Below are positions 5,745 through 8,696 of a stretch of DNA of 64,000 nucleotides, piece by piece. The stretch is taken from NCBI GenBank assembly GCA_040768685.1, contig JAXGMM010000001.1, positions 553,279 to 617,278 of the forward strand, given 5' to 3'. The translations under genes and the position numbers were made by a program. Each line of letters opens with the position of its first letter. The stretch's first letter is position 1. This DNA is from Anaerolineae bacterium. Lineage in GTDB: Bacteria; Chloroflexota; Anaerolineae; DRVO01. Below the pieces are notes generated by a model. The model had not been told where the DNA came from. It saw only the letters and a list, made by a program, of their open reading frames with translations, and did not search any database.

Positions 5745-6737
5745 CTATTTCACATAAACGACAGACTCGGTCTGGATGGACTCGATGGCCGCGGCCAGGA
5801 CCTTCTGGGCGGCCAGGCCGTCGGCGCCGGAGCCGTCGATGTCCTCCGGCGCCACGCCGTCGGTCACCTGCTCGAGGAAGCGGTGAATGCGGTTGATGAA
5901 GGTGTCCTCAAAGTCGCGCATGCCGCCGAAGATGGGGTTGGAGTACACCAGCTTCACCATGTCGCCGGCGGGGTAGAGGGTTACCTCGCGGAACATGTCG
6001 TCGATGACGAAGCGGCCCTTGGTGCCAGCCACCTCGCAGCGCTCCATGGGATGGCCGCGCTCGATATCGTAGCTGCCGGTCAGCCCGCCCACGGCGCCGT
6101 TCTTGAAGCGCATGTTGAAGTGGGCGGTGGACCAGATCTGCCGGCCGGGCGCCTTCAGGGCGAAACACTGCACCGCCTCCACGTCGCCGCAGAAGTAGCG
6201 CATGACATCCACGGTGTGGGGGTGCAGGGCCTTGATCTGGAACCAGGGTGAGGATTCGCGCGGGTTCATGATCCACATGCTCATGTTGACGAAGAGCAGG
6301 TGGCCCAGGCGCCCCTCCTCCTGCCACTGCTTGGCCAGGCGGGCGGCAGGGGTGAAGCGATGGTTGAGGTCCACACCGAGGCACAGCCCCTTCTCGCGCG
6401 CCTTGGCTACCATCTCCTCGGCGGGTCCGATCTCGTTGGAGATGGGCTTCTCCACCAGGACGTGGACACCAGCCTCGAGGGCTTGCATGGTGGGCAGGTA
6501 GTGGTCGCTGCCGTACTCATGGCCGCCGGTGGCGACGCTCACGAGGTCGGGCTTGGCCTTGGCCAGCATGTCCTCGACGTCGTAGTAGGCCGTTGCGCCG
6601 TGAACGGCGTGAGCTTGGTCGGCGCGCTCGCGATCAATGTCGCACACCGCCACCAGTTCGGCCAGGGGATCGTCTCGATAGATGCGGGCGTGGCGGTTGC
6701 CGATGGGCCCCAGCCCGATTACGCCGACTCTCAGCAT
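5745..6737 (-). CDS. Gfo/Idh/MocA family NAD(P)-dependent oxidoreductase
   Basis: MLRVGVIGLGPIGNRHARIY Rossmann N-terminus, EKPIS motif; paralog of 7686-8696. Confidence 0.85.
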   Translation of the reverse strand: MLRVGVIGLGPIGNRHARIYRDDPLAELVAVCDIDRERADQAHAVHGATAYYDVEDMLAKAKPDLVSVATGGHEYGSDHYLPTMQALEAGVHVLVEKPISNEIGPAEEMVAKAREKGLCLGVDLNHRFTPAARLAKQWQEEGRLGHLLFVNMSMWIMNPRESSPWFQIKALHPHTVDVMRYFCGDVEAVQCFALKAPGRQIWSTAHFNMRFKNGAVGGLTGSYDIERGHPMERCEVAGTKGRFVIDDMFREVTLYPAGDMVKLVYSNPIFGGMRDFEDTFINRIHRFLEQVTDGVAPEDIDGSGADGLAAQKVLAAAIESIQTESVVYVK

Positions 6738-6850
6738 AGCGGACTCCTGATAGGTGACAAGGGATCAGTGGTTAGTGGTTAGTGGACAGTGGGGAGTGGC
6801 TAACAGCTTACTCTGCCGCCCACTGGCCACTGGTCACTATCCACTAGCCA

Positions 6851-7564
6851 CTACTCATAGCCGTAGTCGCGCATGGCCGGTTCGAGGAAGTCGAAGGTGT
6901 GCACGCCGGTGTCGGTGCGCCAGCGGCCTACCGCCTCGGGCCGCACCTTGATCTTGGCCAGGCGCATGCCCAGGTAGTCGCTCAAACGCTCGAGGGTCTC
7001 GTCCTGGCGGAGGACGAAGTCCTCGAAGCGGACGGTGATCCAGTTCTGCGGCTTGGGGGTCGTCCGTACCAGTAGGTCCTGGTAGAGCCAGGAGATCGCG
7101 CGCCGCCGGCGGATGTCATCGGTGAGCGGGTACTGGATGCCGAAGTCGCGCAGGTCGTCGGTCTTGTGCCCGGCCAGGATGCTGTCCCGCGGGTCGCGCA
7201 CCCAGAAGATGAACCTGGTCTCCGGCATGAGGCGGGCGATCCAAGGGAAGACGAGGGTAGTCTCGGGCAGCTTCCAGCCGCGGTTCTTGGCATCGCTGGC
7301 GAGGACGGAACGCAGGAAGACGCGCACCAGGTCGGTGAACTCCTTGGGGATGGCGCCGTCCAGGGCGCTCCAGTCCCAGGTGAGATCGCCGTTCCACTTT
7401 ACCTGGCGGGCGAGGACGTGGCAGGCATCGTACATGGCGAAGGGGGGCAGCAAGTCGCCGGAGCGATTCTGGGGTGCACCCATGTAGACGCCGCTGGCGG
7501 CGAGGGTATGCGACATGGCCCGGGTTCCCCCGTGCCCGCGCCCGATGACGGTGATCAGGCTCAT
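6851..7564 (-). CDS. PAPS-dependent sulfotransferase family protein (cytoplasmic)
   Basis: 5'-PSB loop VIGRGHGGTR near N-terminus and 3'-PB motif WVRDPRDSILAGH; no signal peptide. Confidence 0.7.
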   Translation of the reverse strand: MSLITVIGRGHGGTRAMSHTLAASGVYMGAPQNRSGDLLPPFAMYDACHVLARQVKWNGDLTWDWSALDGAIPKEFTDLVRVFLRSVLASDAKNRGWKLPETTLVFPWIARLMPETRFIFWVRDPRDSILAGHKTDDLRDFGIQYPLTDDIRRRRAISWLYQDLLVRTTPKPQNWITVRFEDFVLRQDETLERLSDYLGMRLAKIKVRPEAVGRWRTDTGVHTFDFLEPAMRDYGYE

Positions 7565-7685
7565 AGAGCAGTATCCTCAGACGGTGATGAGTGGATAGTG
7601 GACGGCGGCCAGCGGAGAGCCGAGCTCGCACGGGGGTGCGAACCCCTTGCGGAGAAACTCACCACTGGCCGCCGTCCACTGGTCA

Positions 7686-8696
7686 CTACAGCGTGACTAC
7701 CTCGCCGGTCTCCCAAGACTTGATGATGCCCTCAATGATGGTTTGGACGTGAAGGGCGTCCGCGCCGGAGGCATCGATCTGGTCGGGGGCGACGCCCTCG
7801 ACGTTCTGCTCGATCCAGCGGCCGATGCGGCTGCCGAACGTCTCGCCGAAGCTCATCATTCCGCCCACATAGTCGTAGGTGACAGTCTCACGGGAGAAGC
7901 GCGGGTAGAAGGTGAGGTGCTCGCAGGCGTCCACGAGGACAAAGCGCGCCTCGGAGCCCACCACCTCCAGTTCCTCGAGGCCATAGGAACCGCCGGCGTC
8001 GTAGGAGCCGGTGAGGTGGCCGAGGATGCCGTTCTTAAACAGCAGGTTCACCTGCACGTTGGACCAGCAGACGCGTCGGCCGCCGGGGCCGTCCTTGCGG
8101 GGGCCGCGCTTGAAGAAGGCCTGCACCTTCTCCACATCGCCGGCGTAGTAGCGCATCACGTCCAGCGAGTGGGGGTGGAGGGCGCGGATGTGGAACCAGG
8201 GCGAAGTCTCGTTGGGGTTGTTGATCCACATGCGCATGTTGACGATGTTGAGTTCGCCCAGCTTGCCTTTCTTGACCCACTGCTTGGCCATGAGGGCGGC
8301 GGGCGTGAAGCGGTGGTTGAGGTTGATGCCGTAGCGCAGCCCCTTGGCCTTCGCCAAGGCGACCATCTCGCGCGCCTCGTCCAGGTTGTTGGAGATGGGC
8401 TTCTCGCCCAGTACGGGGATGCCGGCGCCCAGCAACTGCATGGTGGGCTGGTAGTGGTCGCCGCCGTTCTCCTTACCCGCAGTGGTGACGCTGGCGGCGT
8501 CGATCTTCAGGCCGCCGGCGAGCATGTCGTCGACCGAGTAGAAGGCGCGGGCGCCGTACTTCTCGGCGGCGCGGTCGGCCTTCTCCTTGATGAGGTCGCA
8601 CACGGCGACGATCTCGGCGTCGGGGTGCTTCTGGTAGACGCCCGCGTGCGTATTGCCGATGTTGCCCATCCCTACGATGGCTACCTTCAGTGCCAT
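7686..8696 (-). CDS. Gfo/Idh/MocA family NAD(P)-dependent oxidoreductase
   Basis: MALKVAIVGMGNIGNTHAGVY Rossmann N-terminus; shares GEKPISN, LNHRFTPAA, SPWFxIxALHPH, LTGSYD blocks with 5745-6737; AGGAGAGG SD before ATG 8696. Confidence 0.85.
   Translation of the reverse strand: MALKVAIVGMGNIGNTHAGVYQKHPDAEIVAVCDLIKEKADRAAEKYGARAFYSVDDMLAGGLKIDAASVTTAGKENGGDHYQPTMQLLGAGIPVLGEKPISNNLDEAREMVALAKAKGLRYGINLNHRFTPAALMAKQWVKKGKLGELNIVNMRMWINNPNETSPWFHIRALHPHSLDVMRYYAGDVEKVQAFFKRGPRKDGPGGRRVCWSNVQVNLLFKNGILGHLTGSYDAGGSYGLEELEVVGSEARFVLVDACEHLTFYPRFSRETVTYDYVGGMMSFGETFGSRIGRWIEQNVEGVAPDQIDASGADALHVQTIIEGIIKSWETGEVVTL

Follow-up and report, generated by a model that had tools for sequence, protein, structure and literature searches.

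We examined a 64,000-nucleotide stretch from an Anaerolineae bacterium (GenBank contig JAXGMM010000001.1, positions 553,279 to 617,278), referred to here as the window, in which a predicted sulfotransferase is encoded between two related oxidoreductases of the Gfo/Idh/MocA family. The three open reading frames (ORFs), GFO_B, ST and GFO_A, span 5745-8696. They all lie on the minus strand, start with ATG and carry Shine-Dalgarno-like sequences, and the G+C content of the window is ~65%. An earlier reading of this DNA, made from the letters without database searches and called the sequence-only reading below, had described the same arrangement, and the Pfam families agree with it. Together with two further genes, the three make up a five-gene module, listed here in its recurrent order:

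8832-10235, minus strand: ThrSulf, 467 aa, cytoplasmic protein of sulfatase fold with Thr57 at the formylglycine position (PF00884, E 4.7e-51; PF16347)
7686-8696, minus strand: GFO_A, 336 aa, NAD-type Gfo/Idh/MocA oxidoreductase (PF01408 and PF22725)
6851-7564, minus strand: ST, 237 aa, predicted cytoplasmic sulfotransferase of the fold that depends on 3'-phosphoadenosine 5'-phosphosulfate (PAPS), the signature gene of the module
5745-6737, minus strand: GFO_B, 330 aa, NAD-type Gfo/Idh/MocA oxidoreductase (PF01408, PF22725 and PF02894)
4153-4950, minus strand: TIM, 265 aa, xylose-isomerase-like TIM barrel of the AP_endonuc_2 type (PF01261, E 6.9e-29), the fifth module gene

Several lines of evidence bear on the identity of ST. 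The protein matches PF13469 (Sulfotransfer_3) with 49.2 bits against a cut-off of 27, and the two motifs pointed out from the sequence alone were recovered, namely the 5'-phosphosulfate-binding loop VIGRGHGGTR at residues 6-15 and RDPRD at residues 123-127. Its AlphaFold model, built on 24 homologues (predicted local distance difference test, pLDDT, 93.3), displays the sulfotransferase alpha/beta fold, which is distinct from that of P-loop kinases, with the 5'-phosphosulfate-binding element formed by strand 2-8, a loop and helix 11-23. Since the first beta-strand begins at residue 2, there is no room for a signal peptide, and the earlier remark that the protein has no export signal holds. Across the 24 homologues (65-86% identity), G8-R9-G10-H11-x-G13-T14-R15, D37, K98 and E101 are invariant, as are R123, P125, R126, D127, H133, T135 and R214. 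The family profile reaches the tyrosine sulfotransferase TPST1 at E 7.7e-5; in that alignment, K98 corresponds to the Lys of NKDP in TPST and R123-D-P-R-D-S to the RDGRAS stretch, presumably the 3'-phosphate-binding motif of TPST. A search of the PDB with the ST sequence alone returned nothing significant (E 0.17), whereas the family profile and fold searches did match. NCBIfam holds no model for ST, and every other module protein gave only sub-threshold matches there. At least 3193 database homologues of ~240 aa were found. Judged by its sequence and its model, the 237-aa protein is a genuine cytoplasmic O-sulfotransferase of the PAPS-dependent fold, and its branch is nearest to TPST and the CurM/olefin-synthase enzymes.

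GFO_A and GFO_B have the N-terminal Rossmann domain, the EKP motif and the C-terminal alpha/beta domain of Gfo/Idh/MocA proteins. The GxGxxG motif is located at residues 7-12 in GFO_B and 8-13 in GFO_A, an Asp closes strand beta-2 (CD), and EKPISN is found in both. BLASTP aligned them at 172/334 identical positions (51%, E 5e-119), slightly lower than the ~55% given in the sequence-only reading. The shared blocks LNHRFTPAA, SPWFxIxALHPH and LTGSYD listed there are real; GEKPISN occurs only in GFO_A, GFO_B having VEKPISN. The same reading had taken the pair for the product of local duplication, which is misleading. Median identity is 71% within A and 74% within B, compared with 48% between A and B and 45-56% between the two proteins of one locus, so the duplication is older than the spread of the cassette. 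By these identities, the tandem paralogues are distinct orthologue groups conserved across phyla. In family-level searches, the GFO and TIM proteins matched IolG, UDP-GlcNAc 3-dehydrogenase, IolE and IolI best, and TIM gave weak full-family matches to IolE, IolI, UlaE and hydroxypyruvate isomerase.

To place the module among other bacteria, relatives of ST were scanned with one genome per species, and the best 80 loci (numbered with the prefix L) were compared. At least 566 species-level genomes encode an ST relative. The best 80 belong to Chloroflexota, Verrucomicrobiota, Kiritimatiellia, Lentisphaerota, Planctomycetota and Armatimonadota, and also to Poribacteria, KSB1, Latescibacterota, Trueperaceae, rumen Clostridia and a Bauldia chromosome. 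Searches by tblastn with the window proteins revealed the recurrent order ThrSulf, GFO_A, ST, GFO_B, TIM, the partners being 55-84% identical across Chloroflexota, the Planctomycetes-Verrucomicrobia-Chlamydiae (PVC) phyla, Armatimonadota, Deinococcota and an alphaproteobacterium. Orthologues of GFO_A (62-81% identity) lie immediately upstream of ST in 29/80 loci, and in several, e.g., L045, L065, L070 and L078, the stop codon of GFO_A overlaps the start of ST or directly adjoins it. GFO_B orthologues (69-95% identity) lie downstream of ST in 51/80 loci, and TIM orthologues (55-88% identity) are present in 45/80. For the 42 loci in which ST is flanked by 5 kb or more on both sides, the counts were 33 for ThrSulf, 33 for a gene of the GFO_A type, 30 for GFO_B and 33 for TIM; 25 had all five genes and six had none of the partners. 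ST between two GFO genes, as observed here, is far beyond chance, and dozens of unrelated genomes repeat the arrangement. A variant, mostly from the PVC group, reads AraC regulator, third GFO paralogue, TIM, a distant fourth GFO, ThrSulf, ST and GFO_B.

In a rough neighbour-joining tree of ST, phyla were intermixed among the STs of the module, and stand-alone STs fell mostly into subclades of their own; the cassette thus appears to have spread horizontally. Stand-alone loci had unrelated neighbours (GH4, Mur ligase, MFS, RNase II and APH), and no alternative partner emerged from them. The plasmid search returned only relatives of 32% identity, in Cereibacter, and that of Cereibacter sphaeroides adjoins rfbABCD, a glycosyltransferase and kdsA. 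Apart from these loci, ST domains of 43-59% identity were seen fused to GT61, CE15 glucuronoyl esterase, GT4, TPR repeats and a methyltransferase (P0122, P0124, P0165, P0123, P0125 and P0167); P0122 and P0124 are single short contigs and may be artefacts of assembly or gene calling, so that the GT61 and CE15 fusions carry little weight.

The second protein of interest is ThrSulf, the adjacent PF00884 protein in what the sequence-only reading had called an operon with sulfatases. Its residues T57-T58-S59-G60-Y61 (IPTTSGY) occupy the C/S-x-P-x-R register, with Thr57, Ser59 and Tyr61 in place of Cys, Pro and Arg; it has no CxPxR motif, and P-T-T and Tyr61 are at least 95% conserved among 58 orthologues. 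ThrSulf has kept the metal-binding residues D17, D258 and H259. There is no conservation of K108, the Lys of the G-K-W-H signature, where the family has "GF.gN", and His272 stands at the aligned position of the Lys found after DHG in 4uph and 7oz8. ThrSulf thus has the fold and metal ligands of a sulfatase and lacks the formylglycine motif and the cationic sulfate-binding residues. Its PF00884 domain starts at residue 9, and it has no signal peptide; in ST, GFO_A and GFO_B, too, the catalytic domains begin within the first 10 residues and leave no room for one. According to the SulfAtlas paper (PMC5066984), formylglycine cannot be made from Thr, and PF00884 members of this kind do not merit the name sulfatase. 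By its motif residues, ThrSulf is not a canonical sulfatase. Since the formylglycine motif is absent and three cationic site residues are changed, phosphoryl transfer is the more likely chemistry than sulfate-ester hydrolysis, by analogy with other members of the superfamily. Those that transfer phosphoryl groups with a Thr nucleophile include NPP, PafA, EptA, LtaS and phosphopentomutase. The manganese arylsulfatase of PMC12421950, a Cys/formylglycine enzyme, has no bearing on ThrSulf.

A true sulfatase is encoded nearby. The 460-aa protein at 2447-3829 combines the fold with CTPAR, the formylglycine motif; it lacks a signal peptide, and its gene ends in an overlap with the start of a ZIP transporter gene. 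A conserved orthologue is found only in L001-L003, the close relatives of the window, and this sulfatase is a neighbour rather than a conserved member of the module. No gene for a formylglycine-generating enzyme or radical-SAM maturase was found within the 64 kb window.

ST and ThrSulf form one in-frame ORF in L024 (1019-3307, 762 aa) and L048 (2268-4538, 756 aa), connected by a linker of ~65 residues rich in Ser, Thr, Ala and Lys; the two sequences are very similar and probably go back to one fusion event, retained in two species-level genomes. Additionally, ST is adjacent to ThrSulf in L076 and L041 with neither GFO nor TIM genes. These arrangements suggest that ST and ThrSulf are functionally coupled. 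A Nudix hydrolase of 144-154 aa is encoded just upstream of ST in L024, L041 and L048, and a MazG-like pyrophosphohydrolase lies inside the module in L005 (11743-12078) and L006, which hints that a nucleotide, be it 3'-phosphoadenosine 5'-phosphate (PAP), PAPS or a nucleotide-sugar, is handled here.

In L052, TIM is directly followed by adenosine 5'-phosphosulfate (APS) kinase (TIGR00455, 219 bits, cut-off 139), CysD and CysN/C, and these genes are also neighbours of the module in L004, L016, L071 and L084. This linkage of gene positions is indirect support for PAPS as the likely donor of ST. Neither of the two outcomes that the sequence-only reading had named as refuting it was seen: ST does not cluster with unrelated P-loop families, and its motif residues are invariant in the family. 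PAPS-synthesis genes, which that reading had asked about for the genome at hand, directly follow the cassette in related loci.

The surroundings of the module point to carbohydrate, as far as homology of the neighbouring genes can indicate. Divergent from it, an Opp/Dpp-type ABC importer is encoded in the window, and importers of this family face the module in 10-14 further loci. The closest solved relatives of its binding protein are the Thermotoga solute-binding proteins (SBPs) 2o7i, 4jsd and 4pfu (E 1e-25 to 1e-28), of which 2o7i and 4jsd are deposited as oligopeptide-binding proteins and 4pfu as a mannoside sugar-binding protein; the first two we take to be cellobiose/laminarin binders. 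LacI regulators accompany the module in 10 loci, AraC regulators in 13, a downstream GH78 rhamnosidase in 5-6, an FGGY kinase in 4-5 and an aldo-keto reductase in 4-5. An Rfam scan of the window detected no riboswitch or other RNA family and so gave no clue to a ligand. The remaining features around the module are as follows:

1686-2450, minus strand: ZIP transporter
2447-3829, minus strand: Cys-type formylglycine sulfatase, 460 aa counted from TTG 3829 (PF00884, E 3e-41; PF16347, E 9e-27; CTPAR)
4997-5404, minus strand: PIN toxin (PF01850, E 8e-16)
5404-5667, minus strand: Phd/YefM antitoxin (PF02604, E 7e-10), start refined to ATG 5667
10585-11379, plus strand, divergent from the module: HpcH/HpaI-type aldolase (PF03328, E 5.8e-17)
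11395-12186, plus strand: second AP_endonuc_2 TIM barrel (PF01261, E 7e-35)
12641-14629, plus strand: binding protein of the Opp/Dpp-type ABC importer (Pfam)
14665-15717 and 15734-16588, plus strand: Opp/Dpp-type permeases (Pfam)
16598-17599 and 17628-18566, plus strand: Opp/Dpp-type ATPases (Pfam)
18600-19820, plus strand: uroporphyrinogen decarboxylase (URO-D)-like protein (Pfam), following the importer

The aldolase matched HpaI, GarL and 2-keto-3-deoxy-L-rhamnonate aldolase best in NCBIfam, none reaching the cut-off, and its pairing with the second TIM barrel recurs in L001; a URO-D-like gene also adjoins the module in L004. Between GFO_B and TIM, the PIN/Phd pair interrupts the otherwise contiguous module, and since it was seen only in the window and in L001-L003, this toxin-antitoxin pair is a lineage-specific passenger. 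Between the TIM and formylglycine sulfatase genes, 4035-4145 (minus strand) holds a DUF1801 remnant covering residues 57-93 of 122, with 68% identity to the intact gene of L001, and appears to be a decayed gene. An ORF of 490 aa on the minus strand (10276-11748) can almost certainly be dismissed as a gene: no family matches it, its product would be rich in Arg, His, Gly and Leu, and it runs antisense to the aldolase and the second TIM barrel. Farther away, 54090-57397 and 59110-61086 contain a second URO-D-like gene, another Gfo/Idh/MocA gene, a phosphofructokinase and a further SBP_bac_5 binding protein.

The spacers of the module in the window are long and palindromic. Hairpins were predicted in 6738-6850, between ST and GFO_B (a long one; minimum free energy, MFE, -46 kcal/mol, z -3.4), in 7565-7685 (MFE -68 kcal/mol, z -7.0) and in 8697-8831 (MFE -82 kcal/mol, z -6.8). 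None of the three has a T tail, and spacers in other lineages measure 0-30 nt; those of L001 are also palindromic, with sequences unlike those of the window. They may be mRNA-processing or stabilising elements, or resemble repetitive extragenic palindromic (REP) elements. A GC-rich palindrome, CCCCTTCCCGCGCCGGGAAGGGG, has copies in at least four places of the window (33184-33218, 36617-36711, 41523-41636 and 8795-8819), which suggests a dispersed family of palindromic repeats.

On this evidence we tentatively favour, at somewhat less than even confidence, a module that works as a PAPS-dependent sulfation unit for a sugar, glycoside or cyclitol in the cytoplasm, which would also pass through a keto intermediate, with ThrSulf acting next to the ST step and not as a sulfatase. 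A neutral sugar, glycoside or cyclitol would be imported, in many genomes via the adjacent Opp/Dpp ABC importer of the oligosaccharide type, under LacI/AraC control. One NAD-dependent GFO enzyme would oxidise it to a keto intermediate, the TIM-barrel enzyme may carry out an isomerisation or the elimination of a group, and the other GFO enzyme would perform a reduction. ST would transfer sulfate from PAPS onto a hydroxyl of the compound. ThrSulf would act at a step directly beside ST and might clear away the inhibitory product PAP or take a phosphate off the acceptor. The analysis itself shows the fold and motifs, their conservation, the synteny, the fusion of ST with ThrSulf and the linkage to PAPS-synthesis genes; the class of substrate, the order of the steps, the part played by ThrSulf and whether the product keeps its sulfate are inferred. 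Within this model, the chance that ThrSulf acts on a phosphate or sulfate ester of a carbohydrate is about even, a function as PAP phosphatase seems rather unlikely, and some other activity seems rather unlikely as well.

Several observations weigh against this proposal. First, the residue eight positions after R123 is Gly or Ala in the ST family, where it is usually Ser, and the basic residue for the 5'-phosphosulfate (R9 or H11) and the catalytic base (D37, E101 or H133) are candidates only; the base is His in cytosolic sulfotransferases and Glu in TPST. Second, ST stands alone in 6/42 loci, PAPS genes are adjacent in only 5/~80 loci, and none for PAPS synthesis lies within the 64 kb window. 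Third, our searches yielded neither a substrate nor a product and linked the module proteins to no characterised enzyme by orthology, the NCBIfam equivalog scores all being far under the cut-offs, and a phosphatase role for ThrSulf is pure conjecture. Finally, the module loci have no conserved exporter or glycosyltransferase to use a sulfated product, and spending PAPS in an inducible locus that looks made for uptake and catabolism is energetically odd.

Five other explanations were weighed. The first, and the main rival, is that sulfate serves as a transient leaving group: ST would activate a hydroxyl, and the ketone formed by a GFO enzyme together with TIM or ThrSulf would expel the sulfate, for a net dehydration, deoxygenation or anhydro-ring closure with release of free sulfate. 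Sulfation activates a hydroxyl in this way in the ST domains of CurM and olefin synthases and in retinol dehydratase, and LGS1 does likewise according to its PDB title. We regard this as possible, if unlikely, because the structural likeness stays at the level of the fold with 15% identity, dehydration of the E1cB (conjugate-base elimination) type made possible by a ketone needs no activation and hardly justifies the cost of PAPS, and three sulfate-binding cationic residues are changed in ThrSulf.

The second explanation, which we hold to be quite unlikely, is glycan building. ST would then sulfate a surface or extracellular polysaccharide or a lipid-linked precursor, and the dehydrogenases and TIM would make an unusual sugar. 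It draws on the ST domains fused to GT61 and GT4 and on the biosynthetic neighbours of the Cereibacter sphaeroides relative. However, each glycosyltransferase fusion was seen only once, on a short contig, the module has no conserved neighbour that is a glycosyltransferase, flippase or polymerase, and regulators of the LacI/AraC type and an adjacent importer do not fit with it.

Third, ST and ThrSulf could form a hitherto undescribed two-enzyme catalytic unit, occasionally within one polypeptide, either as a sulfuryl relay or "sulfomutase", an idea taken from the analogy with Ser/Thr phosphomutases of the same superfamily, or with ST working in reverse, so that PAPS would be made from PAP and a high-energy enol sulfate or keto sulfate that the GFO and TIM enzymes had produced from an imported sugar sulfate. 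This we consider decidedly unlikely.

Fourth, the sequence-only reading had proposed a cycle of sulfation and desulfation on a sugar, with the flanking sulfatases removing the sulfate that ST adds. The gene row does contain two PF00884 proteins, one of them with true CTPAR and neither with a signal peptide. However, the conserved one has no formylglycine motif and belongs to the Thr proteins that should not be called sulfatases (PMC5066984), and the true sulfatase is restricted to the close relatives of the window, so that a cycle would be left with no conserved desulfating partner; dozens of loci that lack this sulfatase imply that the module works without it. In addition, consuming PAPS and then hydrolysing the ester would be futile. 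The cycle is very improbable on these grounds, and the picture of an operon with sulfatases is misleading.

Lastly, a protein or peptide tyrosine sulfotransferase like TPST, or like the bacterial tyrosine sulfotransferase RaxST, is scarcely credible, given identities of only 18-22%, the minimal 237-aa core, the lack of a precursor peptide, exporter or secretion context in the 80 loci, and conserved partners that are all sugar-type enzymes.

None of the full-text literature searches for the module turned up an account of it. Several of the phyla that carry it are known for degrading sulfated and complex glycans, and to our knowledge sulfotransferases are rarely seen in inducible, importer-linked sugar operons; here, ST is fixed in a cassette of hundreds of species from many phyla. 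Solving the chemistry of the preferred sulfation unit would assign a substrate to a large orphan branch of bacterial sulfotransferases and a function to a family of Thr-nucleophile, sulfatase-fold proteins that databases annotate as "sulfatase" or "arylsulfatase A-like", and would possibly reveal a new role of PAPS in carbohydrate metabolism. If ST instead made PAPS in reverse, glycan degraders would harvest activated sulfate from sulfated carbohydrates. The findings on ThrSulf also carry a warning for metagenomic surveys that not all PF00884 matches are sulfatases.

Comparison with known systems helps to delimit the module. Among sulfotransferases, TPST1 and TPST2 (5wri, 3ap3) are 18-22% identical to ST, which differs from them as a predicted cytoplasmic, bacterial protein of minimal size (237 aa) in a context of sugar enzymes; its loop reads G-R-G-H-(G/S)-G-T-R, compared with what we take to be P-R-S-G-T-T in TPST. 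The ST domains of CurM and olefin synthase (4gbm, 4gox) show 12-15% identity and are domains of polyketide synthases that act on carrier-bound beta-hydroxyacyl chains. BtSULT, the cholesterol/steroid sulfotransferase of Bacteroides, sulfates an exogenous small molecule and adjoins its own cysD/N/C genes. It belongs to Sulfotransfer_3 (PMC13449962), as does ST, and its locus is without GFO, TIM and sulfatase-fold partners.

For ThrSulf, the closest solved relatives form the arylsulfatase/phosphonate-monoester-hydrolase clade (4uph, 4upl, 4upk and 2vqr; E 1e-19 to 1e-28). ThrSulf has the same fold as they do, together with the SGSH_C tail and "DHG"-type Asp/His metal ligands, whereas the clade uses formylglycine derived from C/S-x-P-x-R and ThrSulf, cytoplasmic and sometimes fused to ST, has T-T-S-G-Y. 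The inositol enzymes IolG, IolX, IolW, IolE and IolI of Bacillus subtilis are among the best family-level matches of every GFO paralogue (TIGR04380, full length, E 1e-27 to 1e-30) and of TIM (TIGR04379; 3cny, 1i60). The scores fall far short of the equivalog cut-offs, with 95-106 bits against 355 for GFO and 46 against 290 for TIM, and other iol genes are absent.

A parallel in the combination of families is offered by sugar pathways of oxidation, elimination, in some cases hydration, and reduction, in which we know of no sulfotransferase or sulfatase-fold partner; beside the module, sugar importers and regulators are close by. By orthology the module stands apart from them: it scored 52-62 bits against a cut-off of 650 for LevoglcsnDh (NF052479), and 30-43 bits against cut-offs of 650-750 for the BT_2158 and BT_2159 families (NF058563, NF058561). 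What it shares with levoglucosan catabolism by LgdA/B1/B2/C (PMC7676230), the beta-eliminases of O- and C-glycosides (PMC10628242) and the "alternative" glycan pathway of the gut (bioRxiv 10.1101/2024.03.25.586180) is the set of families, a GFO enzyme, a TIM barrel and a second GFO enzyme.

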